A stretch of 59,167 bases of DNA from Candidatus Binatus sp. (GCA_050010075.1 JBEKLS010000004.1:1-59167); one strand, 5' to 3'; positions 4,335 to 24,847 are shown, counted from the first letter of the stretch. The notes: generated by a model from the letters alone, not told the origin. Program-made: numbers and translations.

Positions 4335-4335
4335 T

Positions 4336-6317: not shown

Positions 6318-6537
6318 GGGACAAGTTCTCCGGTGCTGAAAGCCGTCTCTGCCCATTCGCTCGAAGCAAATTTCGAAGTGTTGTGAAAAGCCATGTCTGA
6401 ATCCTGTCGTCGTCTGCAAACTCGTCTGATTAACGCCACCTGCCGGTGACGCCGCGGTCAAAATGGTTTCAGAGGCGCGGCCGAAAAGGCGGCTGCCTAT
6501 TCAGCGGCGCACGAGAAACGGATGTGTATTTACGGAA

Positions 6538-6888: not shown

Positions 6889-7178
6889 CGCACAGCCTCA
6901 GTAGCTTGCATACTTTAGACTACCATCAAATTCAAAATGAACAAATCTTCACAAATCTGGATACGTCACTCGCCTCGATTCGGTTTCAAAAAATCTCAAT
7001 ATGTCGGCGTGAATAATCGCCGCACAAAGCCGTGCAGCTCGGATAACACCACTCTTCAACGATGACTTCCGCACTGTAACCGAATCGCCGTTTAGTTGGC
7101 TCGAACGATTCTGGCTTGAATGACTGGTGTTACCAGACAAACGCGCTGCGCATCCAAGGCGCCGGAGCAGCACCGGCA

Positions 7179-9026: not shown

Positions 9027-10063
9027 TTCGATCGCGTCCCTATCACGGTGTCGAGGATTCCGTTTTCGGCGAAGAATTTCTGCTGCGCATCATCCCAGTT
9101 GCGGGCGATCGCGGTGATTGGAAACAAAGTGATGTTCGGAAATTGGATGTTCGCCTTTTGCGCCGCTTCCGGTTTCAGCGGCCGATAGCCGAACTTCGCA
9201 ATAGTCGCTTGCCCCTGATCGGTGAACAGGTACTCGAGGAACGCTTGCGCGACCGCTTGCGTCCCGCGCTTGTCCACATTCGCGTCGACCCACGCCACGT
9301 ACGGCTCCGCCAGGATGCTCACCGGCGGGTACACGACTTCGAGGTTGCCTTTCGATTCCGCGACTTCGCGGATGGCCTCGTCTTCCCAGCTCAACTGCAC
9401 GTCGCCGGTCTCCGCTCCGGTAAAGGTCAGCGCGGCACTGCGCGCACCGGGATCCATCACGGGCGGAACGTGCTGATAGAACGACTTCAGATACGCGCGC
9501 GCGTCCGCCTCGGTTCCTCCACGCGTCACGATCGCGCCCCAGGCAGCCAGCGCGCTCAGCTTGCCGTTGCCCGAAGTCTTCGGATCAGGGGTGATGATCA
9601 GCGTGTCGGAGCGGATCAAATCGGGCCAATCGTGAATGTTCCGCGGATTGCCCTTGCGCACTATAAAAACAATCGTCGAAGTGTACGGGCGAGAGTGATT
9701 CGGCAGCCGCTCGGTCCAGTTGTCCGCGATCAATCCGCGCTTGCGCAACGCATCGACGTCTGTGAACAGTCCCAGCGTCACGACGTCGGCCGGATTTTCG
9801 CCGCTGATGACAGTCCGCGCCTGGCGCGACGAGCCACCGTGCGAATCCACGATGGAGATGCGGTGCCCGGTCCGCTTCTCGTAGTCCGCGGCGAATTCAG
9901 CGTCGATCTGCTGGTAGAGCTCGCGGGTCGCGTCGTACGAAACGTTCAGTAACTGACTGTTAGGGTCGGTCTTGCCGGGGGCGTTCCTTGCAAAAATCAG
10001 CGCGAACGCGATTACCACTGCTGCGACCGCGCCGACGTTTAACCATCGTTGTCCGTTATTCAC
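9023..10063 (-). CDS. sbp: sulfate/thiosulfate ABC-type periplasmic binding protein (Sbp/CysP family)
   Basis: LLNVSYDATRELY, SHGGSSRQAR, PYTSTIVFIVRKGNPRNIHDWPDL, PDPKTSG and SILAEP motifs; GTG start; ATGA overlap with sulP. Confidence 0.93.
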   Translation of the reverse strand: MNNGQRWLNVGAVAAVVIAFALIFARNAPGKTDPNSQLLNVSYDATRELYQQIDAEFAADYEKRTGHRISIVDSHGGSSRQARTVISGENPADVVTLGLFTDVDALRKRGLIADNWTERLPNHSRPYTSTIVFIVRKGNPRNIHDWPDLIRSDTLIITPDPKTSGNGKLSALAAWGAIVTRGGTEADARAYLKSFYQHVPPVMDPGARSAALTFTGAETGDVQLSWEDEAIREVAESKGNLEVVYPPVSILAEPYVAWVDANVDKRGTQAVAQAFLEYLFTDQGQATIAKFGYRPLKPEAAQKANIQFPNITLFPITAIARNWDDAQQKFFAENGILDTVIGTRSK

Positions 10064-10245: not shown

Positions 10246-10971
10246 ATGGCTGAACAATCAAAACAGACACCCGTGGCTGTAATTCTGGGGGTCGGCCCCG
10301 GATTGGGAGCTGCCGTCGCCCGACGCTTCGCGAAGAGCTACGCAGTTGCGGTGGTCGCGCGCAGGGCCGATTACTTGAAATCGCTCGGCGACAGCATCAG
10401 AGCTTCGGGCGGACGTTCGCTCGAAGTGGCGGCTGACGTGAGCGACCGGGGCCAGGTGGCAGCAGCGTTCAAAAAGATTCGCGAGCACCTCGGCTCCCCG
10501 GATGTGCTGGTATACAACGCCAGCGCCGGCCCTTTCGGCAGCCTCAGCGAGATATCGGCAGAGGAATATGAGAACTCATGGCGGGTCAGCGCCTTGGGGG
10601 CCTTCCTGAGTGCGAAAGAAGTCGTTCCCGAAATGGTAACGCGTGGGCACGGCGTGCTGCTCTTCACCGGCGCCACCGCCGGGGTCAAGGCGGGAGCACG
10701 GTCGGCCGCGTTTGGTTCGTCGAAATTCGCCCTGCGGGGTCTCGCTCAATCGCTGGCGCGCGATCTCGGTCCCAAGGGAATCCACGTCGCGTGGATCAAT
10801 GTCGACGGTGTGATCGACATCCCGCGCATCCGCGAGAGCCGCCCTCAACTGAAGGACGAGGACTTCCTGAAGCCCGACGCTATCGCTGAAACGTACTGGC
10901 ACCTTGCCCATCAGGATCGCAGCGCATGGACTTTGGAGCTGGAGGTTCGTCCATTCAAAGAGAAGTTCTGA
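10246..10971 (+). CDS. SDR family NAD(P)-dependent oxidoreductase (atypical, FxxxK)
   Basis: GVGPGLG Rossmann motif, LVYNA, TGATA; the catalytic YxxxK appears as FGSSK. Confidence 0.9.
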   Translation: MAEQSKQTPVAVILGVGPGLGAAVARRFAKSYAVAVVARRADYLKSLGDSIRASGGRSLEVAADVSDRGQVAAAFKKIREHLGSPDVLVYNASAGPFGSLSEISAEEYENSWRVSALGAFLSAKEVVPEMVTRGHGVLLFTGATAGVKAGARSAAFGSSKFALRGLAQSLARDLGPKGIHVAWINVDGVIDIPRIRESRPQLKDEDFLKPDAIAETYWHLAHQDRSAWTLELEVRPFKEKF

Positions 10972-10972
10972 T

Positions 10973-13573
10973 TCAGGCGTCGATATTGAAAGCCGCCTCT
11001 GCCAGACGATCCTTCTCCGCTTGAGCGGCGGCGACTTTGCGCAGCGGCAGCAGGCCGTTACCTAGCGCCAGCAGCCCGCCCAACTGATTGAACACCATCG
11101 AATGCATCACGCCGAAGCCGGCGAAAAATGCGCCACCGATGCAGATCGCGTTCGGAATCAGAATGAGCGCCCAGCTTCGGTTGATATTACTGGCGAGGTC
11201 GCGCGAGATGTCCTGCAACTGGAGCAGCTTGGTCAGGCTGTCCTCCATGAACACGACCTGCGCCGTGTCGGTCGCGACGCTCGAGGCGCCGCGCAGCGAA
11301 ATCGAGACGTTGGCTTTTTTCAGCGCGATCGAGTCGTTGATACCGTCGCCGACGAAACAGACCTTTCTCCCTTCCCGCTGCAGCAACTCGACATACTTGG
11401 CTTTGTCCTGCGGCAGCACTTCGGCGAAGTAGCGGTCCATCCCGAGCTTCGCGGCGAGCTTGCTGGTCGGCAGATCGTGATCGCCAGAGATAATTGCCAG
11501 ATGTCTGGCGCCGCGCGCGCGCAGGCCGGCGATGACCTCCTCGGCCTCGGGGCGATTCGCGGCGATCATCTCGATCGCGCCGCCCAGCGCGTCGTCCACC
11601 CCCACCATGATCATCGAGTGGCCGTCGCCGTTGGCGTCTTCTATCTCACGCCTCAACTGGGGTGGCAGCTTGATCCCCTCATGTGTCATGAAGCGCGCGC
11701 TCCCGACCCGAACCGTGTGCCCGCCGACGCCGACGGTGATGCCGTAGCCGACTCGGTACTTCGAATCGTCGATCTCGGCCATCGGAAGTCCGAGCGCGTT
11801 GAACTTGTCGAGGATCGCTTTGGCGATCGGATGACTGAATTTATTTTCGGCCGCGGCCGCCCATTGCAGGATCTGCTGGTCGGAATAATCCCCGAAGGTG
11901 AGCACCCGCCCCACTTCAGGGCGCTCGCGGGTAAGCGTTCCGGTCTTGTCGAAGAGAAAGGTGTCGACGTTGCGCATCAACTCGAGCGCACGCCCGTCCT
12001 TCACGAGAATGCCCTGCTGAGCACACAGCGTCAGCGAGGTAAGCATCGCAGTCGGCGCGGCCACGCGAATGCCCGTTCCGAGATCGCAGTTGACGATTGC
12101 GACGGCCGCGTCAACTCCGCGGGTTACGAGGCCCAGCGCGCCGAGCGCCAGGGTAGGCACCACCGCGGTGTCCGCCAGCTCTTCACCGCGCGACTGCGAG
12201 CGCAGCTTGTAGCCCGCCGTGTCGTTGAGAATCCGCGTGAGCTTGGCCGAAGTAGTCTCCTCGCCCGCGCTCGTGACCGAAACGTAAATCTTGCCGGCCA
12301 GCGAAACCGTCGCGGCAAATACCTTGTCGCCTTTGACCTTCTCGGCAGGCGCGGATTCTCCGGTCAGGGCATGCTGATCGATCATCGCCATGCCGTCGAC
12401 AACTTCGCCGTCCACCGGCACCGTGTCGCCGGTATGAACTACGATGATGTCCTTGACCTTGAGCTGCTCGAGGGGCGTTTCCACTTCGTTGCCGTCGCGA
12501 TACAACCAGACGAATCGAGGCTGCTTGCCAAATACGTTGAGCAGCATCTTCTTCGAGTTGTCCTCGGTCTTCTGCACGAGTTTGCGTGCGACGCTCAGAC
12601 TCCAGGCCAGAACGGTGCCGGCAAATATCTGGTTGGTGGCAAGACAGGCAAGCACGACGATGGCGTCGAGCACGTCGACGCCGAGCCGCTTTTCCTTGAC
12701 CACGACGTTGTAGGCAGCCTTGAAACTCGGAATAGCCGAATAGGCAAACACCGCCGCGCTGAGCGGCGTCAGAGCGGGAACGAAGAACCGGCTGGTGGCA
12801 GCAAGGGCTAAAGACGCCGTGCAGATCGGCAAGTCGAGATCGACCGGCGTCCTTGCGACGTCCGCCGAATTGCGCACCGCACCGTCGAGGATTTCGATGA
12901 GCTGATGCTTCTGGATGTGCCGGGGATCGTAGTGGACGAGCACTGTGGCCGTGAGATCGTTGGTGAAATATCGCTCGACGCCGAGCGCGTTCATGAGCTC
13001 GCGCTCGATCGCCTCGCACAATTCACGCTTGCGGAACAAAACCGGATTGTGCAGTCGAATGCGTCCGTGAATCTCATGCTTGACGGCCCAGCCCGAAAGC
13101 CTTCGCCCGTAACGGTGCAGTCGCACGACGCGCTCTTTCGATTCGTCAAAGCCACTCGGGAAGACGAGCGGTTCCGATGTATCGGATAGCGGCTGGCCAT
13201 CGACAAGAAAGCGCGAAATTTCCTTGATCAAGCCGCGCCTGGACGCATCGTCCGCACGAAAGGAAATCTCCGCCTTGTGCCGGTCGCCGTCGATTTCGAC
13301 CTGCGTGACTTCCGGCGCAAGGAATGCCCGTTCAAAAAACTGGCGCGCTAGCGTGCTGCGTGGATCGGAAAAGAGTGACGCGCTGAAAAATCGGATTCGA
13401 TCACCGCCCGGAAACGAGATTCGCAGATCCGAACGCGCGACGGCTGCGCTGAGCGTCGTTCCGTTTCGCAGATCGGTTCGACTGGCTGACGGCTTCGTGC
13501 GAGAGCTCAATGCCGGCTTGCGGCGCGAGGAACCTCGCGTGCCACGGGTTGAAGGTATAACGAAGGAGGACAT
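10973..13573 (-). CDS. heavy-metal P1B-type ATPase, non-CPx (P1B-6/FezB-like)
   Basis: Intact TGES, DKTGTLT, SHP, SGD and GDGIND motifs. TM4 reads NCDLGTGIRVAAP instead of CPC/CPH. Two N-terminal HMA-like segments carry RIR (GDRIRF, HGRIRL) without CxxC. Confidence 0.9.
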   Translation of the reverse strand: MSSFVIPSTRGTRGSSRRKPALSSRTKPSASRTDLRNGTTLSAAVARSDLRISFPGGDRIRFFSASLFSDPRSTLARQFFERAFLAPEVTQVEIDGDRHKAEISFRADDASRRGLIKEISRFLVDGQPLSDTSEPLVFPSGFDESKERVVRLHRYGRRLSGWAVKHEIHGRIRLHNPVLFRKRELCEAIERELMNALGVERYFTNDLTATVLVHYDPRHIQKHQLIEILDGAVRNSADVARTPVDLDLPICTASLALAATSRFFVPALTPLSAAVFAYSAIPSFKAAYNVVVKEKRLGVDVLDAIVVLACLATNQIFAGTVLAWSLSVARKLVQKTEDNSKKMLLNVFGKQPRFVWLYRDGNEVETPLEQLKVKDIIVVHTGDTVPVDGEVVDGMAMIDQHALTGESAPAEKVKGDKVFAATVSLAGKIYVSVTSAGEETTSAKLTRILNDTAGYKLRSQSRGEELADTAVVPTLALGALGLVTRGVDAAVAIVNCDLGTGIRVAAPTAMLTSLTLCAQQGILVKDGRALELMRNVDTFLFDKTGTLTRERPEVGRVLTFGDYSDQQILQWAAAAENKFSHPIAKAILDKFNALGLPMAEIDDSKYRVGYGITVGVGGHTVRVGSARFMTHEGIKLPPQLRREIEDANGDGHSMIMVGVDDALGGAIEMIAANRPEAEEVIAGLRARGARHLAIISGDHDLPTSKLAAKLGMDRYFAEVLPQDKAKYVELLQREGRKVCFVGDGINDSIALKKANVSISLRGASSVATDTAQVVFMEDSLTKLLQLQDISRDLASNINRSWALILIPNAICIGGAFFAGFGVMHSMVFNQLGGLLALGNGLLPLRKVAAAQAEKDRLAEAAFNIDA

Positions 13574-13579
13574 CGGCGA

Positions 13580-13888
13580 TTACCCGCGGAACTTCGAGGC
13601 GCCGATTCGCTGGCGAGCTTTGCGCTCAGCGCGCTCATCATCGAATTGTTCCTTCCATTCAAGCGCCACTTTCGCGATCAAGACGTAGATCTCACCGAGC
13701 GCATTGCTGGCCGCATCGACGATAGGTCCAAGAGTTTGGCCAAGTTCAGCCCATGAGGTCGCGCCCGAATCAGAACCTTCGTCGACAATTTCGAACTTCC
13801 AGACCGGCGACGGCGTCTTTTTTGAACGCGTTCGTTTGCTCGGCGCAGCTGCGGAAAGGTTCGTTGCCGGTGGATTGAGCTCTGCCAT
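13580..13888 (-). CDS. small helical protein directly upstream of the P1B ATPase (DUF5132/Fez accessory-like)
   Basis: 102 aa, ends 6 bp before the ATPase start; C-terminal helix AKVALEWKEQFDDERAERKAR resembles small proteins encoded next to such ATPases. Confidence 0.6.
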   Translation of the reverse strand: MAELNPPATNLSAAAPSKRTRSKKTPSPVWKFEIVDEGSDSGATSWAELGQTLGPIVDAASNALGEIYVLIAKVALEWKEQFDDERAERKARQRIGASKFRG

Positions 13889-14069
13889 GAATTGAAGGTG
13901 AATTCTGTGTTACAGCCCGAAGTTATCGACAAGGGCCTCATCCTACGGGCAAGCGGACAAATAAGTCAAGTTTGTCGATGGAGTAATAGAGCTACGTTGA
14001 GCTTCGAGCGTTGTCAGCTTGACCCAGCGGAATTGGCGATGCTACACAGGGTCTCATAACCCAGATCGG

Positions 14070-14086
14070 TCTATAGAGTTTATCGA
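14070..14086. promoter_or_regulatory. candidate operator, copy 2 (TCTATAGAGTTTATCGA)
   Basis: Lies 32 bp before the GTG of the degenerate ATPase. A variant one base shorter (TCGATGGAGTAATAGA) is at 13975-13990. Confidence 0.5.
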
Positions 14087-14118
14087 AATATGCAATTTGC
14101 GGGCGCTGGCGACTCATA

Positions 14119-16872
14119 GTGGCTGAAATACACCCTCAAGGAAAGCGCAGCAGGAGCGCCAGCCGTGGCAGCTTTGTAAGATCAAAGACCAGAATCGCGA
14201 AAGTTGCCACACTTCCAGTTTCTCCATCCGTCGTGCGCATCGCTCCTCGGGCCGACGGGGTATCTATCTGGAGTTCCGACCTGTTCGGCGAGCCTGCGGG
14301 CTCGCATCTCCGCGAGTTTCTTTCCCGCGTCTTCAGCGTCAGCGAGGTCGCCACCGTCGAAATCCGCCGCGCCGAATCTTTCGGGCGCGTCCGTTACGAT
14401 TCATCGGCCAATCCGCCGGAAGTGTGGCTAAAGCTCAGTCGTGCCCTTGGTCAGTTCGGCGCTTCGCATCCGAGTCCGGAGGCCGATGACGCCGTGCTGA
14501 AGCCTCTGGGCGTCGAGAGTCTCTATCTCGACGGACCTCCGGAGTTGCCTATCCGGGTCGGCCGCGTCGGCAGCTCGCTATCGACCTGGCGACTGCGTTA
14601 TCAGAGCGACCACAGGATTCGTCTCACCCATCCTATCCTGCTCAACCGCAAGGATGTGGCGTATCGGCTGGAAGAGGAACTGACCGCAATCCTCGGCGTC
14701 GAGGAGTTCAGGACGAGTACGCTGACCTCGAGCGTCGCGGTCCGGTTCAATCCCGCCCTGCTGAATCCCGAGCGATTGATCCGGCAACTGGAAAAATCCT
14801 GGCCGCGATTGCTTGAAGGTCTCGAGGGCCCTCCCTCCGCCGCAAGGCTGGTTGCTGCGAGCGGCCTGCTCGGGCTTGCCTTCACCGGACAGTACCTCGT
14901 GCCGCGGCTTAAACCGCTGGCGTTGCTGGGAGTGGCCGCGTATGGCGCCGCCAACGTGAAGAACGCCGCGAAGCAACTGGCGCAATGGGAGGTTGGTCTT
15001 CCCACTCTCTATTCGGTCGGATTGGCGTTCACGCTTCTCAGCGGGATGCCATTTTCGTCCTCGGTGATGGCCGTCTTCATGCAGTTCTGGCCGCGCCTGG
15101 CGTATCAGACGATGACCAGAAGCCAACGGCGCCTATTCGCTGTCCATCGGCAGCGCGCGACTTGGGCCCGTCTGGTGCGCGACGGCGAGGAGATCGAAGT
15201 TGACCTCGACGCGTTGACGGCCGGCGACGTGATCGAGGTGGGCGAAGGCGAGACCATACCCGTTGACGGTGTGGTGACAGAGGGCCTGGCGGCCGTCGAC
15301 GAAGAGGCGCTGTCCGGCAGGGCGGGCGCCGCGGACAAGACGCCGGGCGACGCGGTCTATGCGAGCACGTTCGTTCGTCACGGACGCCTGAAGGTACGCG
15401 TCGAAAAAATCGGGAGTGACACGGTCGCCGGTTATATCGGATCGCTCTTGCCGCATTCGAAGATCGATAACCTCCTGTCCTCGGCGGAAGCCGAGCGGAT
15501 TGCAAACCGTAACGCGAGGCGCGCGCTGGCATTGGCGGGAGCCAATCTTGTGCTGCGGCGGCGGTTGCGCTCTTCGCAGGCTGTCGTTCGCCCCGACTAC
15601 GTGACGGCGCCGCGGCTCGGCGCCCAACTGGGCGCGCTGCACGATCTCGCCGACGGTCTGCGGCGGGGGATCTTTTTTCGTGATCCCACCGCTTTGGATC
15701 GGTTGCCGGCCACCGACGTTTATGTTTTCGACGAGACCGCGGCGCTCGAGCGGATGCAACTCGAAGTTGCCGATATTTTTCCCGCCCGCGACGTTTCCGT
15801 GGAGGCTGTGCTGGGTTACGCGACCGCGGCTTTCCCCGCGGGACAGAACGAACGCGCCCGCGCCTTGCAGACTCGAAGCGTCGAGCTGCGCGCGCCGATT
15901 CCGGCAATCTTCCAGCGCTCGCGCTACGCCGGCGCCATCCGCTACCTCGACAGCGGTAACCGGCTGATCGAGATTGCGGCTCCCGCCTACCTCGCGGCCG
16001 TGGGAGTCAAGGTTCCTGCGCAGCTGGCTGAGACGGTCGCCGCTTCTCCTTACGCGCACAATCCCCGGCGCGCTGGCGGCGGAAATAAATTCGTCGCGCA
16101 TGAAGAGCCGTTCCTGCGTCCACTCTGGGTTCTGCGCGACGGCGAGGTACTCGGCGCCGTCACCTTCCGCCGGGAAGGCGCACCGGAAGGGATAAAGATC
16201 ATCGCGGATCTCCAGGCGCGAAATCGCAGAGCGCGCTTCGTCTATCTTTCCAGTCAGGCGCAGGCCGCGGCCGCGGCGGTCGCCGGCAGGTTCGGATTCT
16301 CGTCGGCGTTCGGTGGTCTCGACGCCGACGACAAGGCACGCGCCATCACGAGGCTGGGCAATCGCACCATATGGATTGGCGACGGCGCCTCGCCCGAGGC
16401 AATCCCCAGCATCGAGGCGAGCACCGTCAGCGTCTCGGTCGCTGGAGTTGCGACCGCTCCTCGAGATGCGGCGGACATCGTCCTTCTGCAGCCGGGTTTG
16501 GATAACCTGGTGCCGCTGCGGAGCATCGGGCGCGACCACCGCACTCGCATCCAGGCCGACTACCGCACGGTCTATACCGCCAATCTCCTGAGCGTTGCCG
16601 GTGGATTATTCGCCGGCTTCGGCAGCCTCGAAGCAGGACTGACTTCCAACGCCGGCACCGCCTACGTTTACCTGAGGCATCGGCGACATTTGCGCGATTT
16701 GATTTCCCAGGTCGAAACGAAGAGAGCGATTCTCAAGTCGCCGGCCCGCGAGGAAAGCGAGCATACGGCCGACGCGTTGCATGCCGGGCTAGACGCTGCG
16801 GAAGAATTCGTCGCCTATCGGGAGATCGATCGGTCCGCGGAGCTCGAACGCGGGCTGCATCACGGGGTTTGA
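14119..16872 (+). CDS. degenerate P1B-type ATPase-like protein (probable pseudo-enzyme)
   Basis: Full-length 917-aa frame with P1B layout (HRIRL N-domain, GETIPVDG, TM4 RPDYVTAP), but TGES reads SGRA, DKTGT reads DETAA, the TGD region reads SSQ, and GDGxND reads GDGASP. Confidence 0.82.
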   Translation: MAEIHPQGKRSRSASRGSFVRSKTRIAKVATLPVSPSVVRIAPRADGVSIWSSDLFGEPAGSHLREFLSRVFSVSEVATVEIRRAESFGRVRYDSSANPPEVWLKLSRALGQFGASHPSPEADDAVLKPLGVESLYLDGPPELPIRVGRVGSSLSTWRLRYQSDHRIRLTHPILLNRKDVAYRLEEELTAILGVEEFRTSTLTSSVAVRFNPALLNPERLIRQLEKSWPRLLEGLEGPPSAARLVAASGLLGLAFTGQYLVPRLKPLALLGVAAYGAANVKNAAKQLAQWEVGLPTLYSVGLAFTLLSGMPFSSSVMAVFMQFWPRLAYQTMTRSQRRLFAVHRQRATWARLVRDGEEIEVDLDALTAGDVIEVGEGETIPVDGVVTEGLAAVDEEALSGRAGAADKTPGDAVYASTFVRHGRLKVRVEKIGSDTVAGYIGSLLPHSKIDNLLSSAEAERIANRNARRALALAGANLVLRRRLRSSQAVVRPDYVTAPRLGAQLGALHDLADGLRRGIFFRDPTALDRLPATDVYVFDETAALERMQLEVADIFPARDVSVEAVLGYATAAFPAGQNERARALQTRSVELRAPIPAIFQRSRYAGAIRYLDSGNRLIEIAAPAYLAAVGVKVPAQLAETVAASPYAHNPRRAGGGNKFVAHEEPFLRPLWVLRDGEVLGAVTFRREGAPEGIKIIADLQARNRRARFVYLSSQAQAAAAAVAGRFGFSSAFGGLDADDKARAITRLGNRTIWIGDGASPEAIPSIEASTVSVSVAGVATAPRDAADIVLLQPGLDNLVPLRSIGRDHRTRIQADYRTVYTANLLSVAGGLFAGFGSLEAGLTSNAGTAYVYLRHRRHLRDLISQVETKRAILKSPAREESEHTADALHAGLDAAEEFVAYREIDRSAELERGLHHGV

Positions 16873-16877
16873 GAAGC

Positions 16878-17273
16878 TCAGGCGTTGGATCGCTTGCGCC
16901 GGGCGGGTGGTGGCGACTTTCGACGGCTCGCCGCCGCTCTGGTTTTCGGTTTCCTGACGGCCACAAATTTCGCCTTCTGAAGAATTGATTCGATCTGGTC
17001 TTTGAGCTCGGCTTTCTTTTTATTCGTGAACAGAAGCCGCGCCCACAAAGGCGCCGCTGCGTACAGCTCAACCTTCGTCTCCTGAAATCTCACTTCTATC
17101 TGCACCGGCTCGGCCGCGATGTGCAGCACTTCGCCATCGTCGTCGGCCCAGTTATAGGTCACCGGCCTTGGGAAAAGCCGCGCATTCAGCACGATATGTT
17201 TCTCGACCGCCTTGCGCCGGGTCGGCGTCAGCGGGTAGTCAATCGCGAAGTCGTATATTTTTTCCTGTTTCAT
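16878..17273 (-). CDS. hypothetical protein
   Basis: 131 aa, ATGA-coupled to exoD, basic C-terminal tail; no family confidently recognised. Confidence 0.65.
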   Translation of the reverse strand: MKQEKIYDFAIDYPLTPTRRKAVEKHIVLNARLFPRPVTYNWADDDGEVLHIAAEPVQIEVRFQETKVELYAAAPLWARLLFTNKKKAELKDQIESILQKAKFVAVRKPKTRAAASRRKSPPPARRKRSNA

Positions 17274-18238
17274 CGCTGTCTCGAGTTGGCAGAGCGTTTG
17301 GTTATCGGCGACCGCGCCGGTCCTTCCACATGAGAGTGGCGGGTTGCAGGCCGCACGAGCTTCCGGCCTCGCCGCACGGTTGAACGCTTTCGTTGGAGTT
17401 TCAAGGCGGACTTAGCTGACGCTTCCGGATTCCACAACAATAGCAGCTCGGCCCATTCGAGCAGCCACAGCGTGGTCCACTGGAATCCAAATTTTTTCAG
17501 CAGCCTGGCAGCCAACTTGAGGCCGGTTCTCGCGAACCACTTGAGGCCGATCTTCTTTAGAAACTTTTTCACCCAGCCGCCGGCTATCGACCGGAGAACT
17601 TCGGCCGAGACTCCCGCGCCCGTCAGCAGCACCAGCGAGGCGATTCCGGCCACGACGCCGAGCAGGATCGCGAGGCCATCGCGCTCCACCATCCCCAGGG
17701 AAATTATGAAGATGGAGGCAGCGTGAGCTATGTTGAATCCCGCATTCGGAAAGGCGATGACGAGCGCCAGCAGGAAAACCAAAACTCCCAGCGCGCGATG
17801 CGTCGCGGGATGGCTGGCCCATCGATGCCGCGGTTTGACGGCCTTCTCCACCCGTTCCAGCACCGGAAGAATTGCGTGGATTGCGACCGTGAGCGACCGG
17901 CGCGGCACCGATCGCTGAAGAATAAACTCTGGCAGCTTGATCTCGGTCTTGCCGGCGATCATATGCCCGGCGACCAGACTCGCTGGAAGGCCGACCAGGT
18001 TGGACGTGCCCGGGACCGGCAACATTCCCGGGATCGAGAAAAACATCAGCGAAGTTCCTATGCGCCTTTCGCCGATCGCATCGACGATTTGCTGGACGGT
18101 AAAGTTCTTGACCCTGGGATTCTTGGTCAGGATTTCACGCAGCAATTGCGAGGTGCGAGTCGCCGGAAATTCCGGAAGGTCAGCGGCCGAACGAACTGCG
18201 ATTGTTGGTTTTGTCAGAGCCGTGAGCGTTTTCCTCAT
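17270..18238 (-). CDS. exoD: ExoD family membrane protein with extended basic amphipathic C-terminus
   Basis: TSQLL...TVQQIVDAIGER, LPVPG, LPEFILQRSV and ERDGL motifs typical of ExoD; GGAAGGA RBS-like sequence upstream. Confidence 0.8.
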   Translation of the reverse strand: MRKTLTALTKPTIAVRSAADLPEFPATRTSQLLREILTKNPRVKNFTVQQIVDAIGERRIGTSLMFFSIPGMLPVPGTSNLVGLPASLVAGHMIAGKTEIKLPEFILQRSVPRRSLTVAIHAILPVLERVEKAVKPRHRWASHPATHRALGVLVFLLALVIAFPNAGFNIAHAASIFIISLGMVERDGLAILLGVVAGIASLVLLTGAGVSAEVLRSIAGGWVKKFLKKIGLKWFARTGLKLAARLLKKFGFQWTTLWLLEWAELLLLWNPEASAKSALKLQRKRSTVRRGRKLVRPATRHSHVEGPARSPITKRSANSRQR

Positions 18239-18437
18239 CCTTCCCCCACAACCTCTACAACGCTGATGGCGGCGAAAGAGCCGCCGCGGTCAAGCCGGTC
18301 CGCGACCTGTTTGGCCGTGGAGCCGGACTCCATATGCGTTGATCTCAATTTCCTATAACCCGCGACACAGATTAATGTGTAATTTGCATGACGTTTTTAT
18401 GATGTTTAGGTTGACTCTCCGCAAGAATTCGATATTG

Positions 18438-18454
18438 TCTATCGACTTTATGGA
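18438..18454. promoter_or_regulatory. candidate operator, copy 3 (TCTATCGACTTTATGGA)
   Basis: In the AT-rich exoD/APC divergent intergenic region; same TC[CT]AT-N7-[AC]T[CG]GA pattern as copies 1 and 2. Confidence 0.5.
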
Positions 18455-18583
18455 GATAGTCATAATTTAAGCCTCGGTCCGTGTCAAATGTAACCTTGAG
18501 AAGTCTCGCGATGCCTGGGTGCTAGGTCCTCGCTAGCGTTCCACTAATAAAGCCAGCAAAATCATCAAACTAGTCGGAATATA

Positions 18584-20083
18584 ATGCTCTCAGAAGACAA
18601 CCATGAGAATTTCGTCCTCGTCGGAGAACAGCGGATTGCGCCGCGCGAACTGAGGCGCGACTGCCTTTCCTATATGGAGGTGCTGGCCCAGTCGGTTGCA
18701 GTCATTGCCCCTTCCACAGTCCCGGCCGCGATCCTCGGATTGATTTTCGCGATGGCAGGGAACGGTACGTGGCTGAGTTTCCTGCTTGGAATGATCGGAC
18801 TGGTGTTCGTCAGTTCCAATATCAATCAGTTCGCCCGGCGCTCTGCATCACCGGGTTCGCTCTACACCTACATTGTCAGAGGACTTGGACCTACGGCGGG
18901 CGTGCTCGGCGGATGGGCCTTGTTGTTCGGGTACATGCTCACAGGGATATCGACGCTGTGCGGCTTCGGGATCATAGCCGACGTGCTGCTGGGGCAAATC
19001 GGAATTCATCCGCATATGCTGACGTTGTTTGCGATGGGTACGATTGCGGCATTCTGCATCGCATACCGCGATATTCAACTCTCCGCCAAGATGATGCTGG
19101 TGTGCGAGGGGGCTGCGCTTATCGCGATTCTGATACTGGGTGTTCTCATCTGGGAGCACAAAGGCTTCGCCATCGACAGGAGCCAGCTCACGTTGACCGG
19201 CACGAAGCCGGGCGGGGTGCTGATGGGCATCGTGCTCGTCGTCTTCGGCTTTTCCGGCTTCGAGAGTTCGACCTCGCTGGGTGAGGAGGCAAAAGACCCG
19301 TTGCGGACGATCCCGCGCTCCGTGATCCAGAGCGTAGTTGTTACCGGGCTCGTGTTCATTTTCATGGCGTACGTGGTCGTCCTCGGGTTCAAAGGCTCGT
19401 CGGCCGCGCTTGCAACCACGGAAGCGCCGCTCAACTTTCTCGCTAACGCGATCGGATGGGGGTTTCTCGGTCTGATCATCAATATCGGCGTGCTCTTGAG
19501 CTTTTTCTCCTGCACGCTCGCCTGCATCAACTCGACCGCGCGGATTGTCTTCTCGATGTCGCGGCATGGCCTGTTCTTTGAGGCGCTCGGCGAAGCTCAC
19601 GAGAAAAATGAAACGCCTTACATCGCGGTCGGCCTCGCCGCGCTGGTCACATTTTTGATTCCCGCAAGCTTCTATCTATTCGGAGTCAGCGCATTTGACG
19701 GCCAGGGTTACTTTGGCACGCTCAGCAGCATGGGCTTTCTGGTGGTGTACATACTGATCTCGATTGCCGCTCCGATGTACCTGCGAAGCCTTGGCAAGTT
19801 GAACATCGCAGCGGTGCTCTATTCCATTTTGGGTACCGGCTTCATGATACTGCCCTTTCTCGGGATGGTTGGCGTACCTGGGAGCACGCTGTTTCCCGTC
19901 CCTGCGTTCCCGAACAACATTCTGGTCTGGCTGTTTGTTGCTTACATGGCGATTGGCTTGGTGTGGCTGCTTTTTCAGAGAGCACGCCATCCCAAAATGA
20001 TGCCTACGATGAGAGTCGCGATCGAAAACGTCGAGCTTGAATTCGCTAACGCGGCGAGTGTTACGAAGAGGTCCGTCCCGTGA
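18584..20083 (+). CDS. APC family amino acid/amine permease
   Basis: About 12 TM segments; LAQSVAVIAP, SPGSLYTY, GFSGFES, GEEAKDP and ARIVFSMSRHG motifs. Confidence 0.9.
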   Translation: MLSEDNHENFVLVGEQRIAPRELRRDCLSYMEVLAQSVAVIAPSTVPAAILGLIFAMAGNGTWLSFLLGMIGLVFVSSNINQFARRSASPGSLYTYIVRGLGPTAGVLGGWALLFGYMLTGISTLCGFGIIADVLLGQIGIHPHMLTLFAMGTIAAFCIAYRDIQLSAKMMLVCEGAALIAILILGVLIWEHKGFAIDRSQLTLTGTKPGGVLMGIVLVVFGFSGFESSTSLGEEAKDPLRTIPRSVIQSVVVTGLVFIFMAYVVVLGFKGSSAALATTEAPLNFLANAIGWGFLGLIINIGVLLSFFSCTLACINSTARIVFSMSRHGLFFEALGEAHEKNETPYIAVGLAALVTFLIPASFYLFGVSAFDGQGYFGTLSSMGFLVVYILISIAAPMYLRSLGKLNIAAVLYSILGTGFMILPFLGMVGVPGSTLFPVPAFPNNILVWLFVAYMAIGLVWLLFQRARHPKMMPTMRVAIENVELEFANAASVTKRSVP

Positions 20084-20190
20084 CGCAACGTAAGACCCCG
20101 TAATTATCCGCGAGACGATAAGAGTGGCAGTTAAACAATGGCGATGGTGTCGAATCGCCCCTAATTCAATCAAGCAATGAGGTTGCGCAA

Positions 20191-20565
20191 ATGAGTCCGA
20201 GAACAAAAGAAGCCGTTGGTACCAATCCGTTTTCCGTTTTGGGAGAAGCGCTGGAATCCGCCGCAGAAACCTTTGGCGACGCCACCACCAACGCACGCGC
20301 ATCGGCCAAAGTGGCAGCCCGAAACGTGAAAGCGGGCGTCGGTGCGGGGGCTTACAAAACGGCCTACGGCGTTTCCTATGGACTGGTATTCGCGGGGGTG
20401 TTCCTGACTGAATTGCTCCCGGAAGAAAACGTCCTGCGTCGCGGCCTCGAAGATGGCGCCGAAGCCGGATTAGACGCCGCCGCGAGCAGAAAAGTAAAAG
20501 CGCCGACCGCTTCAATCCGCTCGATCGCTGGAAAGAAAAAGTCCGCCCCTGCAAAAGCTAGATAA
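20191..20565 (+). CDS. small Ala/Gly-rich membrane-associated protein with GxxxG motif
   Basis: 124 aa; hydrophobic segment YGVSYGLVFAGVFL; GAGG RBS; Lys-rich tail. Confidence 0.75.
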   Translation: MSPRTKEAVGTNPFSVLGEALESAAETFGDATTNARASAKVAARNVKAGVGAGAYKTAYGVSYGLVFAGVFLTELLPEENVLRRGLEDGAEAGLDAAASRKVKAPTASIRSIAGKKKSAPAKAR

Positions 20566-20687
20566 AGCGCAGGCTCTCAACCGCCTGCAAGTAGACAAAG
20601 CCGCGTACCTCAGAAAAAGGCAATTGCTAACGTGCTGTTGTGCCTGTGAAGGTGATGAACAGTGGCGAAGTATAGGCTTTGGGTTGT

Positions 20688-21824
20688 CTAGCTTTCACCA
20701 GGCTGGCTCACGAGGGGTGTAGCGGAGGGTAGGCCGTGCCAGCGCCGGCCGGAGTTGAGGATCGCGCCGAGCGAGGTGAGGTTGCGCCGGTCGGCAAGGA
20801 CGGCAACAGCGGCGAGCAGACGTCCTTCGCTCAATTCGTCGAACGCATCGCCCAGAGAGACTGCAAGATGCAGCATAACGCTCGCATCCCGGTAGCAATC
20901 CGCCATACAAGCCGTGCAGCCGTCGCGGACGAGCTTGCCTCGATCGAATTCCCAAACGGAGCAAATCGGTGTCCGCCAATTTTCACAGCGCCACAGGTCG
21001 TAATTCCAATCCATATAAAAGTACTTGTACCCGCCATAGCAGACAAAACGCTCTGCCTCGCCGTGCAGACGCCGCTTCCTGTCGGCGATGGATGCGCGTG
21101 GATTCTGTAGCGGAAAGAGCGGGCGCAGTTCCTCGACCGCTTCGAAGGAGGCCAGGAGTTCAGCGGGCGCGAACTCAACGAGGTCGGAGTCGTCGCTCCA
21201 CACGAGAGAGCTCGACCCGAGCGGTGTCTTGCGCGGATAGGAAAACGTCACAGCCGAAAAGCCCAATCCGCGCAGGAATGATGCCAACGCTTTGTAGTCG
21301 CGGATGAGGCGGCTCATGGTGACCGAAGCGACGGCCGTCATCCCTAACGATGGCATGCGCCGCGTCGCCGTTGCGATTCGCGCGCACACGCCTCGCAGGC
21401 CGCGATTGGTCTCGTGGACCTCTACGTCGGGTGCGTCGATCGAGATCAAGACGGTCTTGACGCCAGCTCTCGCCAACCCGTCCAGCTTATCCGCCAGGAG
21501 CCAGCCATTGGTGATGACCATCGGCTCAATACCCATTGAACGCGCGGTCGATGCCATGTCGACGAGCTTTGGGTGCAACAATGGCTCGCCGCCCATGAAG
21601 ATCGCGTAACGTACGCCGCCGTGCTGGTGCAGAATCGCGAGCGCCCCCGCGAAGCGGTCAGCATCGAGCCAGCGCCGCTCTCGCACGTATCCCTTGTCGT
21701 AGGCGAAGTTGCAGAATCCGCATGTGGCATTGCAAGTGTTGGTGACTGACACGTTGCAGACCGCCGGGCCACCGTAGCGGAGGAGCCGCAGGAGATCGAC
21801 GATGGTCCTGGCCCGTTCGATCAT
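20688..21824 (-). CDS. radical SAM protein with twitch/SPASM-like C-terminal cysteines
   Basis: CNATCGFC, GGEPLLH, ISIDA; C-terminal CYGG...WRC...CTACMADC. Confidence 0.9.
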   Translation of the reverse strand: MIERARTIVDLLRLLRYGGPAVCNVSVTNTCNATCGFCNFAYDKGYVRERRWLDADRFAGALAILHQHGGVRYAIFMGGEPLLHPKLVDMASTARSMGIEPMVITNGWLLADKLDGLARAGVKTVLISIDAPDVEVHETNRGLRGVCARIATATRRMPSLGMTAVASVTMSRLIRDYKALASFLRGLGFSAVTFSYPRKTPLGSSSLVWSDDSDLVEFAPAELLASFEAVEELRPLFPLQNPRASIADRKRRLHGEAERFVCYGGYKYFYMDWNYDLWRCENWRTPICSVWEFDRGKLVRDGCTACMADCYRDASVMLHLAVSLGDAFDELSEGRLLAAVAVLADRRNLTSLGAILNSGRRWHGLPSATPLVSQPGES

Positions 21825-22388
21825 TCTTTGCCCCTCGGGCGTGAAGGGTTTAGCGGCTCGACCCGCTCCAGATTAAATGCCATCAGCCGCACCCTCGCGA
21901 CGAAGCTGTGAAAGGTAAGCGTCGCCGAAAGCTTGCCGACGCCACGGGCTCGGTTATGAACCACAATTGGTATTTCGGCAAGATGGAAGCGCCTATCCGC
22001 GCGCGTAGCTGCTGCAATTTGAATCCTGAGTCACGCTCGCACCAACTCCCGGCGTTTTGCAAACGCAAAGTCCGAGCCCACTTTTGAGTTGTTCCGGCTG
22101 TGCTTACCAAGAACTCTGAAGGCAGCGAAAAGTCTAGAGGTTTGAAATTCACCGCGATGACATCGGCATGAGTAAATCCAAACGACTGTTTTGAGAAGCG
22201 ACGGCGACCCGCCGGACCCACCACCTCGGCCTCGCTCCGTCAGATGTGGAAACTCGCCCCGTCTCACGAAATAGCTCGTCGACCACGGAACATGGAGTGT
22301 TAACCGACTTGAACTTCTACAAAGCTGAGAGGAAAGCCGAATCGATCAGGTTTGACACGGTCGCCGTTCACGCGAGGACGCCAAGGGG

Positions 22389-23606
22389 CTACCCTAATGC
22401 TCCCGAGGATACAAGCTCGCTGATTTTGTCCTCGTCGTACCCCAGAATCTCGGAAAGGACATGTTGATTGTCTTGACCAAGACTAGGAGCGGCCCGGCGA
22501 ACTCCCGCCTGCGTCCGCGAGAGAATTGCGCGAGGACCCTCGACGGTGAAACTGCCAAGCGTAGGATGATTCAGATCGACAAAATGCCCTCGATGAACGA
22601 ATTGCGGGTCCCGAAAGGCTTCTGAACTGTTTTGCACTCGGTGGGCCGCGACACCTTGTGATTGGAGTATACGTTCGATCTCGGCGCCATCCAGCTCTCG
22701 GCTCCATTCACTGATAGCTGCGTCGAGTGCTTCACGATGTTGAAATCGTGACGCACCGGAGGAGTAACGAGGGTCAGAACCAAGATCGACACGACCCATC
22801 ACTGCACATAGTTGTTGCCAATCGCGATCGCCCTTGCAAACTATAGCGACCCATTTGTCTTCACCCGAGGCCGGGTAGACGCCATGTGGTGAGAATGTAT
22901 TGTCACTATTACCAGCTCTTACCTGAACCCGACCGTTCACTGTGTAGTCGAGAATCGCCTGACCTAGAAAGTGTAGAGAACATTCCGACTGCGACTGATC
23001 GATGTACTGTCCTTGGCCAGTGCGACGGCGAAATTCGAGCGCGGCGAGAATGGCCATCGCGCTGAATCGGGGCGAAATGTAGTCAGTGTAGGCGCCGAAT
23101 GGACCCGCCGGCGGACGGTCGGGCCATCCAGTGAGATTGTGAAATCCCGAAATCGCCGCCGCCATGTTTCCGTATCCCGCGATTTTGGCAATCGGACCCG
23201 TCTGACCCATGAGGCACGAACTAAGCATGATTATGTCGGGTTTAATCTTCCGCATTTGCTCGTAATCGAAGCCCCACGCCCGCATCGCTTTAGGTGAGAA
23301 TGATTCGGTTACCACATCTGCCCACTTGACGAGATCAAAAACGATTTCACGAGCTGTTGGATTTCCGAGGTCGAGTGCAATTCCGAGTTTGCCGGCGTTG
23401 CAATTGGCAAATAGCCCTGAGCTATCCGGGCCAAGTTTATTTCCATGATACGGTTGAAGCGTCCGTGCCGTGTCCACGCGAGTGGGTGACTCTATTCGCA
23501 CCACAGTTGCTCCGTAGTCTGCAAGAATACGGGTTGAAGCAGGGCCGGCCATCACCCACATGAAGTCCAGGATCTTGACGTCACTGAGTGGTCGATCATC
23601 GTGCAT
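22389..23606 (-). CDS. class III (CaiB/BaiF) CoA transferase, BbsF-like subunit
   Basis: LADYGATVVRIES, N.GKLGIALDL, ADVVTESFSP, PPAGPFGAYTD (catalytic Asp position present), APSLGQDN. Confidence 0.9.
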   Translation of the reverse strand: MHDDRPLSDVKILDFMWVMAGPASTRILADYGATVVRIESPTRVDTARTLQPYHGNKLGPDSSGLFANCNAGKLGIALDLGNPTAREIVFDLVKWADVVTESFSPKAMRAWGFDYEQMRKIKPDIIMLSSCLMGQTGPIAKIAGYGNMAAAISGFHNLTGWPDRPPAGPFGAYTDYISPRFSAMAILAALEFRRRTGQGQYIDQSQSECSLHFLGQAILDYTVNGRVQVRAGNSDNTFSPHGVYPASGEDKWVAIVCKGDRDWQQLCAVMGRVDLGSDPRYSSGASRFQHREALDAAISEWSRELDGAEIERILQSQGVAAHRVQNSSEAFRDPQFVHRGHFVDLNHPTLGSFTVEGPRAILSRTQAGVRRAAPSLGQDNQHVLSEILGYDEDKISELVSSGALG

Positions 23607-24847
23607 CAGATGATTCCATCTTGCGAAAGCTTTGCGAACTCACCGTCGCTCATACCGAGTTCGCCGCAAAATATTTCTCGATTGTGCTCGCCGACCGTTG
23701 GCGGTCTGCGGCGGTATTGAATGGGCGCGGCGCTGAATTTTGCAAACGGGCCGGGATAAGAGAATGAAGCGCCGAGTTCTGGATGCTCGACGGACTGAAA
23801 GTAGCCGCGTGCCGCCAGTTGTGAGCTTTGGACAACCTCCTCGACGGTGGCTACCGGCGTTATCAGTAAGCCTTTTTCCACGGCAAGTTGTAGCAGCTCA
23901 GCCTTGGTGTGATGACGCGTGAAGGTTCGTACGACCTCCTTTACGCGTTCGAACTCCTCGAGCGGTTCCGTACCACCGGACAGCATCTCGCCATACTGTA
24001 TCCAGTCTTTGTCAGCGGTCGATTTGTCGCAAAACCCTTGTCCATGAATGTGCTGCATCAATCTTTTCGTGAAAACGCCAATCGCCGATCCGAATAAAAA
24101 CGCCAATGCTACAAACCCATCCCTGGAAGGCCACACAAACGGTATATCCAGCTGGCCAAGCCTCATCCCGCCGGACATCCTGCGTGCCTCGGGTGAACCG
24201 AGCGGCGCAGCGAGTATGTAAGACTGTGTTGCGAGCGCGACGGACTGCAGCGCGGCTACATCTATGTACTGTCCCAGCCCGGAGCGAGAGCGCTCGTGAT
24301 GGGCAGCCAGCGAGGCGACCGCCGCGTCCGCCGAGGCATGCAGGTAGGCTTGCGGAACGCTGAGACGCACGGGAGGACGGTCAGCGTCACCGGCAAGAAT
24401 CAACGGACCGCCTGCGGCCATGATAACCAGATCGCTCTCGGCATAACTGGCTTTCGGTCCATGCTGACCGAAGCCGGTGATCGAAACGTATATCAGCGCA
24501 GGATTGATCGGGCTCAAATCGGCGAAGCCAAGGTGGCGCTGCGCAAGATGACCGGGGTTGTACGATTCGATGAGGAAGTCGGCGCGGTGGACCAGTTGGC
24601 GAAGAATAACCTGCCCCTCCTGGCGATCCAGGTTCAGCGTGATCGAGCGTTTGTTGCGGTTGTACGCCCACCAATACAACGAGCGGTCGGGATGCGGAGC
24701 GTCGTTGACGAAGGGCGCGATGTTGCGCGCATCGCAACCTCCGGGCGGCTCGATCTTTATAACGTCGGCGCCCATGTCGCCGAGACATTGGGCGCAAAAG
24801 AGTCCTCGCTCAGTGGAAAGATCGAGAACCCGATACGGCTGGAGCAT
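23606..24847 (-). CDS. class III CoA transferase, BbsE-like subunit
   Basis: LGDMGADVIKIEPPGG, NRNKRSITLNL, SITGFGQHGP, PPVRLSVPQAY, PPTVGEHN; TGATG overlap with its partner. Confidence 0.9.
   Translation of the reverse strand: MLQPYRVLDLSTERGLFCAQCLGDMGADVIKIEPPGGCDARNIAPFVNDAPHPDRSLYWWAYNRNKRSITLNLDRQEGQVILRQLVHRADFLIESYNPGHLAQRHLGFADLSPINPALIYVSITGFGQHGPKASYAESDLVIMAAGGPLILAGDADRPPVRLSVPQAYLHASADAAVASLAAHHERSRSGLGQYIDVAALQSVALATQSYILAAPLGSPEARRMSGGMRLGQLDIPFVWPSRDGFVALAFLFGSAIGVFTKRLMQHIHGQGFCDKSTADKDWIQYGEMLSGGTEPLEEFERVKEVVRTFTRHHTKAELLQLAVEKGLLITPVATVEEVVQSSQLAARGYFQSVEHPELGASFSYPGPFAKFSAAPIQYRRRPPTVGEHNREIFCGELGMSDGEFAKLSQDGII

Follow-up and report, generated by a model that had tools for sequence, protein, structure and literature searches.

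P-type ATPases are textbook pumps with a single catalytic subunit. Among them, the P1B ATPases carry a cysteine-containing tripeptide (CPx, xPC, PCP, SCA or CSC) in the fourth transmembrane helix (TM4), according to a review (PMC13460109). For the P1B-6 pumps, which include FezB of the ferrosome (fez) clusters, the motifs are given as D[Y/F]SCA in TM4 and HNxxT in TM6 by Grant et al. (bioRxiv 10.1101/2020.01.10.902569), and as SCA with N-x18-HNx(S/T) in the review (PMC13460109). A second point of reference is calcyanin. The Pfam domain HMA_2 (PF19991) is what the calcyanin literature calls CoBaHMA, and in Microcystis the ccyA gene is surrounded by CoBaHMA, DUF454, DUF5132 and cax genes (bioRxiv 10.1101/2024.07.07.602159; PMC8890360). 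Here we analyse a gene cluster at positions 10973-20565 of a 59,167-nucleotide stretch of DNA from Candidatus Binatus sp. (GCA_050010075.1, JBEKLS010000004.1:1-59167; "the window" below means this whole stretch), in which a pump without a CPx motif stands beside a full-length, catalytically dead paralogue. A preliminary description of this DNA had read the cluster as a variant of the ferrosome-like organelle loci, with an active and a dead P1B ATPase and small GxxxG proteins.

Results

The seven open reading frames (ORFs) announced in the preliminary description were all found, at the positions and with the properties given there. They are listed here with the region separating the two ATPase genes.

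10973-13573, minus strand: A, a P1B-like ATPase without CPx, 866 amino acids (aa), with an N-terminal CoBaHMA (HMA_2) domain
13580-13888, minus strand: u, a small soluble helical protein, 102 aa, 6 nucleotides (nt) upstream of A
13889-14118, no strand: divergent promoter region between u/A and D, with an 8-bp inverted repeat inside
14119-16872, plus strand: D, a catalytically dead full-length paralogue of A, 917 aa, divergent from u/A
16878-17273, minus strand: s, a small soluble protein, 131 aa, translationally coupled to ExoD
17270-18238, minus strand: ExoD-family membrane protein, 322 aa, whose stop overlaps the start of s by 4 nt
18584-20083, plus strand: permease of the APC superfamily, 499 aa (PF00324)
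20191-20565, plus strand: g, a small helical-hairpin protein with one hydrophobic helix, 124 aa

A scores 414.9 bits on TIGR01525, the model of P1B-type heavy-metal ATPases (cut-off 346.25), and matches the Pfam families E1-E2_ATPase, Hydrolase and HMA_2, the last at residues 163-228 with 38.1 bits (gathering cut-off 30). Its catalytic motifs TGE, DKTGT, HP and GDGIND are all present; TGE, DKTGT, HP and GDGxNDS are kept in 46/46 A sequences, and in the 28 orthologues that were aligned T404-G-E406, D542-KTGT, H581-P and G742-DG-ND747 are invariant. The same alignment shows no change at N495, D497, G499-TGIR503 and P507 of TM4, N808 of TM5, and S825 and N829 of TM6. In this genome the TM4 motif reads NCDLGTGIR, without CPx, and N[CS]DLGTGIR, with no proline, is found in all 46 sequences; A therefore does not have the cysteine-containing tripeptide of the P1B ATPases. 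No Cys or His is invariant, C496 being Ser in 11 of the 46 sequences and H824 being absent from a subtype with ASVVTNN in TM6. RIR motifs stand at 59-61 and 171-173, the second (G170-R-I-R173) within HMA_2, and R171 and R173 are kept in at least 90% of the sequences. The intact P1B ATPase lacking CPx, with DLGTG in TM4 and RIR-bearing N-terminal domains, was thus correctly recognised at the outset. The solved structures closest to A are those of CopA pumps (E 2.7e-63), and a HMMER alignment pairs NCDLGTGIR with the ACPCAFG stretch of CopA. Among 8000 scored candidates, 1609 relatives of A were found at E <=0.001; the best 120 of the 1609 are 67-100% identical to it, and those named among the matches listed come from Methylocella silvestris BL2, Beijerinckia indica, Xanthobacter, a Verrucomicrobia bacterium and a Polyangiaceae metagenome-assembled genome (MAG). 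The membrane site of A (Asn, Asp, Thr and Arg in TM4, Asn in TM5, Ser and Asn in TM6) is oxygen-rich and thiol-free, and no Cys or His is conserved there; we therefore infer that it binds a hard ion, most likely a divalent cation (Ca2+, Mg2+ or Mn2+), and not Cu, Zn or Co.

The second ATPase gene encodes a protein of quite another kind. D has SGR for TGE, DETAA for DKTGT, no HP, and GDGASP, and none of the 23 D sequences keeps TGE, DKTGT, HP or GDGxND, so that the divergent, degenerate paralogue of the preliminary description indeed retains no catalytic motif. With 166.6 bits it falls under the TIGR01525 cut-off, as it does under every curated cut-off scanned, and its HMA_2 match (23.9 bits) is under the cut-off of 30, with the RIR motif retained. 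D nevertheless has a conserved TM4 motif of its own, RPDY[AV]T[AG]PR, and its reading frame, some 800-930 aa long, is intact in 22 other genomes from different phyla. Given this intact long ORF and its own TM4 motif, D is, on the sequences compared, not decaying. Two related groups of paralogues, M and T, are likewise catalytically dead.

We then asked how regularly these genes are found together. One genome was taken per species, which gave 52 loci, and their ORFs were assigned to seven families by BLAST. Core loci (n=32) were those with a full A at least 60% identical, and 19 of them had at least 7 kb on both sides (well-flanked); the other 13 were set aside. D was present in 19/19 well-flanked core loci, ExoD and the APC permease in 18/19 each, g in 16/19, s in 13/19 and u in 7/19, the count for s being an underestimate, as tblastn finds s also in two more loci (L018 and L028). 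D, ExoD, the APC permease and g occurred all together in 16/19. The gene order is shuffled between Alphaproteobacteria, Verrucomicrobiota, Myxococcota and Azomonas. Because the order differs between phyla, the linkage is maintained by selection and not simply inherited as synteny, and the recurrence of the same gene set in other phyla makes the neighbourhood more than chance. The earlier proposals to survey gene neighbourhoods, and to ask whether the small proteins co-occur with the pump in other genomes, thus gave positive answers: active pump, dead paralogue, ExoD, APC permease and g recur together across phyla, with g at 16/19 and the dead paralogue at 19/19, and u, at 7/19, is found with the pump as well.

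Outside this core, the composition varies. Verrucomicrobial loci have a second dead paralogue, of group T, in addition. Loci of Methylococcaceae and Planctomycetota have g, an A of 53-58% identity and a dead paralogue of group M, without ExoD or APC permease; 8 of the 14 loci of this type have the dead partner, 2 lack it in the 2.4-3.7 kb available downstream, and 4 are too short. In a Methylococcaceae MAG (L034, 8354-18682) the core of g, A and dead paralogue lies beside a ParA/MinD-like ATPase, two DUF454 proteins and a Na_Ca_ex gene. Intracellular carbonate inclusions were recently reported in Methylococcaceae (bioRxiv 10.64898/2025.12.07.689555). Neither the clade, nor a dead P1B paralogue, nor any connection of ExoD with P-type ATPases turned up in full-text searches of the literature; published ferrosome and CoBaHMA trees may already contain these pumps without a name.

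The relationship to FezB was examined with positive controls, namely 13 FezB-type pumps from genomes of the order containing Rhodoblastus (the Rhizobiales order). All 13 carry DY[SA]C[ATP] in TM4 and HNG[TSA]T in TM6, and 11 of the 13 loci have a gene for a small protein immediately upstream of the pump gene. D[Y/F]SCA is absent from 46/46 A and 23/23 D sequences, and HNxxT is absent from 46/46 A sequences, which have instead N808-x15-H824-S-M-V-F-N829 or the ASVVTNN variant; the difference from FezB suspected earlier for HSMVFNQLGG (residues 824-833) is therefore real. As both defining motifs are absent, FezB identity is excluded, even if A does share the arginine-rich RxR motif of the FezB N-terminus. 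A third type of pump, with D[FY]GTG[IF]R in TM4, was found in relatives of the host and in one genome of the Rhizobiales order.

Trees were built on 61 rows. A was represented by 13 of its 46 sequences, D by 8 of its 23, the FezB type by 9 of its 13 pumps and the D[FY]GTGIR type by 5; the other rows were 14 canonical pumps (CopA and ZntA of E. coli among them), 9 additional dead paralogues, a plasmid pump, an unclassified pump and, as outgroup, 2 KdpB sequences. Three trees were compared, a quick IQ-TREE, a quick IQ-TREE without the longest branch and a FastTree; support values are those of the Shimodaira-Hasegawa-like approximate likelihood ratio test (SH-aLRT) or FastTree local values. The nesting was the same in all three. 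A is sister to the dead clade (support 100), which is as old as the A clade, and A, the dead clade and the D[FY]GTGIR pumps are together sister to FezB (support 99; 93 in FastTree). The 9 FezB-type rows form a clade of their own (support 100), so that A and D lie in its sister clade and not within it, and the CopA, FixI, ZntA and PCP types fall outside the superclade of A/D and FezB. Judged by these trees, A and D form an unnamed clade, sister to the FezB (P1B-6) pumps, within an HMA_2 or "R-rich" superclade. In the comparison with canonical Cu/Zn/Co exporters that had been suggested for them, the two ATPases thus group with the FezB superclade and not with the exporters. "Fez-related" therefore stands as a statement of ancestry; as a statement about the cluster it fails, the FezB motifs being absent and the fez accessory genes as well, since Pfam searches with the seven proteins of the island and ten from its flanks found no stand-alone HMA_2 (FezC-like), DUF4405, FeoA or DUF2202 protein. 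Another same-genus genome (G026; L069, 8016-10046) encodes a 676-aa P1B-like ATPase with AGACGIAAGTP in TM4, which fits no quoted motif and branches between the canonical pumps and the FezB superclade.

Clusters around the D[FY]GTGIR pumps in the host order (L065, 6381-10224; L066, 7058-10264; L067, 6875-11251) consist of a DUF5132 protein, a stand-alone HMA_2 membrane protein, the pump and a Na_Ca_ex gene, and resemble the Microcystis ccyA neighbourhood.

At E up to 0.01, neither Pfam nor NCBIfam places any of the three small proteins (u, s and g) in a family. The comparison of u and g with DUF5132 (PF17195), suggested at the outset, gave no match at E up to 5, and small proteins upstream of D[FY]GTGIR pumps, used as positive controls, did match (4.6e-10 in L070, 1.6e-4 in L066). 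The PacL family (DUF1490) was not among the matches of g or u against all Pfam. For u, which is found upstream of A where it occurs in the well-flanked loci, hhalign gave a weak match to the helix of the small FezB-upstream protein (P=0.0013, probability 18%), the range for the DUF5132 and FezB-upstream helices being P 0.0013 to 0.013 and probability 3-18%; the two latter families resemble each other (P 1.9e-5). Since the profile alignment is weak, homology of u to these small proteins is possible at most.

The protein g is the accessory most faithfully linked to A (16/19 core loci, 12/14 distant loci). Its 43 database relatives are all unnamed "hypothetical proteins", and an atlas search returned unnamed clusters only. 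In Pfam, the 35 members of the family gave insignificant matches only (CbtA for 10/35, best E 0.018; DUF543 for 3/35), and profile comparison by hhalign (P 0.03-0.4) revealed no likeness of g to the small proteins that accompany FezB. Y55, P77, G85 and G89 are invariant in the 35 aligned sequences. Of the GxxxG motifs attributed to g, both G60xxxG64 and G85xxxG89 are present: the first is not conserved as such, G64 being kept in at least 90% of the sequences and followed four residues on by S, A or G in the hydrophobic helix, and the second is invariant and lies in a polar helix. The AlphaFold2 (AF2) model has a helix at 13-75, a turn at P77 and a helix at 81-103, with a predicted local distance difference test score (pLDDT) >90 for residues 60-100. 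Prediction of a complex of A (150-866) with g scored 0.00 and gave no answer, speaking neither for nor against binding.

For s, 16 orthologues were aligned, in which W42, P75, W77 and A78 are invariant, and a Pfam scan of all members gave insignificant matches only. The nearest named fold is that of the polyhydroxyalkanoate (PHA) granule-region family PF09650, PHA_gran_rgn, with a language-model feature score of 0.83 and a predicted-fold TM-score of 0.56/0.60; none of the 16 members matches PF09650 in sequence at E up to 1, and the predicted likeness is a lead only. A further family of small ORFs, of 124-191 aa and without a Pfam family, stands between A and s at 7 loci, e.g. L018 12457-12900, L025 12614-12988 and L020 10947-11375; its carriers belong to a group made up of Acetobacteraceae, Azomonas, Rhodoblastus and Lichenihabitans, and the island in this window has no copy.

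An ExoD with a coupled ORF and an APC permease had also been named in the preliminary description, and both are borne out, by PF06055 and the 4-nt overlap for the former and by PF00324 for the latter. ExoD reaches 149.4 bits on PF06055 (gathering cut-off 23.8). Its 23 aligned orthologues share G182, E185, D187 and G188 without exception, and the C-terminal tail is basic and amphipathic. The AF2 model (pLDDT 77.7) resembled no structure in the PDB by Foldseek (best E 0.42, TM-score at most 0.22). In Sinorhizobium meliloti, according to a review, mutation of exoD lowers succinoglycan production and renders the cells alkali-sensitive. The APC permease matches PF00324 (112.4 bits) and PF13520 (79 bits) and no NCBIfam model at its cut-off; its orthologues, in 18 of the well-flanked core loci, are 59-80% identical.

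Within the host order (165 genomes of one family, a tally that includes 7 unpublished ones), A was found in this genome only, and the next best match is 35% identical. The DNA of 10993-20600 has no match in 40 relatives (two unpublished), and the stretch 4001-6946, the short-chain dehydrogenase/reductase (SDR) gene and 22388-23997 have DNA matches of 78-88% in same-genus genomes; protein synteny with one relative stops at a TetR gene at 6461. Because it is found in 1 of the 165 genomes, the module is probably a horizontally transferred island. Both of its junctions are bridged by contigs from independent peat and soil metagenomes, the SDR/A junction by X2 record 15 and X3 record 19 and the g/radical-SAM junction by X2 record 16 and X3 record 24; the arrangement thus does not stem from an error in a single assembly. 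In the order of Rhodoblastus, A is present in 6 of 401 sampled genomes. On the mobilizable 36-kb plasmid pMRAD05 of Methylobacterium radiotolerans (NC_010518.1; L084, record 26-4000), a pump 44.5% identical to A adjoins an ExoD gene, with a 530-bp unannotated gap between the two.

Two neighbouring genes were considered as parts of the module and rejected: the radical S-adenosylmethionine (SAM) gene (20688-21824), which does not recur beside the module elsewhere, and the SDR gene (10246-10971), for which only one SDR match was found, of 27%, in L020. The radical SAM gene and the short ORF after it (20688-22388) have no DNA match in the 40 relatives either, so the acquired region may be a mosaic longer than the module. 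The 71-nt intergenic stretch to the right of g (20612-20682) has an 88% match to another same-genus genome. GC content is about 0.59-0.63 in the window's left part and drops to 0.51-0.54 between 26 and 44 kb.

The inverted repeat between u/A and D has two arms of 8 bp that match without exception, ATCGACAA (13925-13932) and TTGTCGAT (13972-13979); the window contains 11 copies of the 8-mer, where 2.68 would be expected. A k-mer search of 53 sets of upstream regions for a shared promoter motif gave GC-rich noise only, with ATCGACAAA in 5 loci.

To the left of the island lie two genes of sulfate uptake.

7179-9026, minus strand: SulP-family anion permease with a STAS domain (PF00916)
9023-10063, minus strand: periplasmic sulfate-binding protein of the Sbp/CysP type, whose stop overlaps the start of SulP by 4 nt

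SulP scores 279 bits on PF00916 and 335 bits on TIGR00815, under the cut-off of 380; Sbp scores 331 bits on NF008022 (cut-off 288) and 323 bits on TIGR00971. SulP homologues 49-66% identical lie beside the module in 13/32 core loci (8/19 well-flanked), and Sbp in 14/32 (9/19 well-flanked), always adjoining SulP except in L004; such pairs are found inside or beside the module in other phyla too. The coupling of a periplasmic binding protein to a secondary SulP carrier (7179-10063) is in itself an unusual pairing, and it recurs in other phyla. In six loci, as defined by BLAST clusters, a CysTWA-type ATP-binding cassette transporter takes the place of Sbp-SulP, with CysT, CysW and CysA above their cut-offs in L008 and L010, the two loci checked. 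Altogether, 18 of the 28 core loci analysed have an Sbp-family or CysTWA-family gene beside the module. Proteins of sulfur acquisition tend toward low sulfur content, and the Cys+Met contents found here are as follows: none in u, s and g; 0.29% in Sbp; 0.55% in D, all of it Met, with 0 Cys in 917 aa; 1.25% in ExoD; 1.79% in SulP; 2.54% in A; and 5.02% in the APC permease. Set against the median of the 26 other ORFs of the window, which is 3.06%, most of the proteins in the module are poor in sulfur.

Discussion

The reading that we prefer, and to which we would give slightly less than an even chance, is that of a two-subunit P-type pump for a hard ion, encoded on an acquired island and linked to sulfur limitation. 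A and D would form one complex, with D as the non-catalytic partner and ATP turned over by A only, and the ion would be bound at the A site and moved out of the cytosol. The pump would come with the small hairpin membrane protein g and the small helical protein u, and the CoBaHMA domains of A and D may regulate it or anchor it at an anionic surface, roles proposed for this domain in the literature. In this lineage the pump would work with ExoD, s and the APC permease, alongside sulfate uptake through Sbp-SulP or CysTWA, and the module would serve sulfur-scavenging cells; it is probably switched on when sulfur is limiting. Several points weigh against this proposal. The contact between A and D is deduced from co-occurrence alone, the identity of the ion from residues only, and cation sites do not usually have an invariant Arg such as that of TM4. 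Of the 28 loci analysed, 10 have no sulfate genes, and neither the APC permease (5.02% Cys+Met) nor A (2.54%) is sulfur-poor. In addition, the Methylococcaceae pump core sits with Na/Ca-exchanger-type and DUF454 genes and not with sulfate genes, and the sulfur link may therefore be specific to the present lineage.

A working pump obligately joined, across phyla, by a dead paralogue of full length is an architecture that we found undescribed in the searchable literature. As the clade is the nearest to FezB and carries CoBaHMA, its cargo would show how this lineage has diversified between organelle-type and other uses. The sulfate-uptake link and the sulfur-poor proteins point to a concrete condition, sulfur limitation, and there are cultured, non-pathogenic carriers, Methylocella silvestris BL2, Beijerinckia indica, Xanthobacter and Azomonas macrocytogenes. 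A bolder proposal, which we hold to be improbable, is that the A/D pump and g, together with the anion importer, create or supply an undescribed intracellular store of a hard cation with sulfate or another oxyanion, or else that the GTGIR site makes A the first oxyanion P-type ATPase. If true, the ion store would be the third member of a series with the ferrosome (iron phosphate) and the carbonate inclusions; in either case, the dead subunit, always found with the working one, would add a new architectural principle to the P-type pumps.

The alternative that survives best, although we consider it unlikely, is a ferrosome-like organelle, in which the pump would load a cation into a lipid-bounded compartment shaped or organised by the small membrane proteins, the ion being stored possibly as a mineral with the imported oxyanion. 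The position of the pump as sister to FezB agrees with it, as does the CoBaHMA domain, which is common to FezB, FezC and calcyanin, a marker of intracellular carbonate inclusions; however, the motifs of FezB are absent, and the island revealed no FezC-like, DUF4405, FeoA or DUF2202 gene. The gene next upstream of the pump codes for a small protein, as it does in 11 of the 13 FezB loci, and g has a hydrophobic helix with small-xxx-small motifs, but such motifs are common in membrane helices, and g bears no profile similarity to the FezB-linked small proteins. An anion importer lies beside the cation pump, the Methylococcaceae variant with its ParA/MinD-like ATPase, DUF454 and Na_Ca_ex genes resembles the Microcystis ccyA neighbourhood, and the fold of s is reminiscent of a PHA-granule protein, again as a lead only. 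Against this, the named carriers of the module are mostly aerobes, whereas the hosts of FezB are mostly anaerobes, and inclusions have been reported for no carrier in the searchable literature.

An improbable alternative is a pump for acidic, ion-poor soils, in which A/D would move H+, Na+ or K+ and so energise or balance SulP and the APC permease, with ExoD aiding pH tolerance. The sequencing runs that contain this DNA, none of those listed being recorded as RNA, are peat, bog and soil metagenomes, and the carriers include names of acid habitats, such as Rhodoblastus acidophilus and Acidocella; this link to habitat is, however, an association only. The pair of Asp and Arg in the membrane recalls the H+-ATPases of plants and fungi, and the cluster does hold two secondary transporters. 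Yet A showed no sequence relationship to P3 H+ pumps or to KdpB, its nearest relatives being P1B pumps, and such a role would leave both the dead paralogue and g unexplained.

Still harder to defend is an anion pump, in which an oxyanion would bind at Gly-Thr-Gly-Ile-Arg of TM4, and A/D, supplied by Sbp, would use ATP to import sulfate or a similar oxyanion with high affinity; we regard this as very improbable. Two unrelated sulfate-uptake systems are linked to the module, whose proteins are mostly sulfur-poor, and the residues kept without exception in the membrane site include Arg, Thr, Ser and Asn, with Cys and His not conserved; moreover, a Gly-rich stretch with its backbone amides resembles anion sites of other proteins. 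Nevertheless, no P-type ATPase is known to transport an anion, an invariant Asp stands two residues ahead of the GTG stretch, the FezB relatives are linked to iron, and the relatives in Methylococcaceae and in the host order adjoin cation exchangers. Finally, that D is a mere decaying duplicate in a chance neighbourhood of ordinary transporters can hardly be maintained, even though D has lost every catalytic motif, since the conservation data already contradict it: in all 19 well-flanked loci D is a long ORF without damage, it keeps a TM4 motif of its own, the dead and the A clade are of equal age, and the gene set recurs in Pseudomonadota, Verrucomicrobiota and Myxococcota in differing order.

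Comparison with known systems

A P-type ATPase that depends on other subunits is not without precedent. In KdpFABC, transport by the P1A ATPase KdpB is dependent on other membrane subunits from the same operon. The partners in Kdp are not paralogues of the ATPase, unlike D, and KdpB is the outgroup in our trees. Another such case is the CtpC-PacL1 "effluxosome" of Mycobacterium, in which a P1B-6-like ATPase and a small membrane-anchored partner encoded next to it are co-expressed; as described in the review, CtpC differs in having CPC and N-x18-HNx(S/T), in exporting zinc and in lacking a dead paralogue (PMC13460109).

With the calcyanin (ccyA) loci, the likeness lies in the CoBaHMA domain, the small hairpin membrane proteins, the cation transporters and an anion transporter of the SulP type, and in the Methylococcaceae variant of the pump, which sits with DUF454 and Na_Ca_ex. 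The present locus differs in that it has no calcyanin or GlyZip protein and no DUF5132 match for u or g, and in that CoBaHMA is here fused to P-type ATPases.

The fez clusters remain the nearest relatives. As they are described (bioRxiv 10.1101/2020.01.10.902569), FezB shares with A an R-rich/HMA_2 N-terminal domain, an Asp-led TM4 motif followed by a basic residue, the lack of Pro at the CPx position and a small protein encoded directly upstream, and some fez clusters have a second, divergent P1B ATPase, FezH, a possible counterpart of D. In our locus, however, the partner ATPase is dead, the motifs are N[CS]DLGTGIR in TM4 and HSMVFNQ or ASVVTNN in TM6, and the place of the iron genes is taken by ExoD, an APC permease and neighbours devoted to sulfate uptake.

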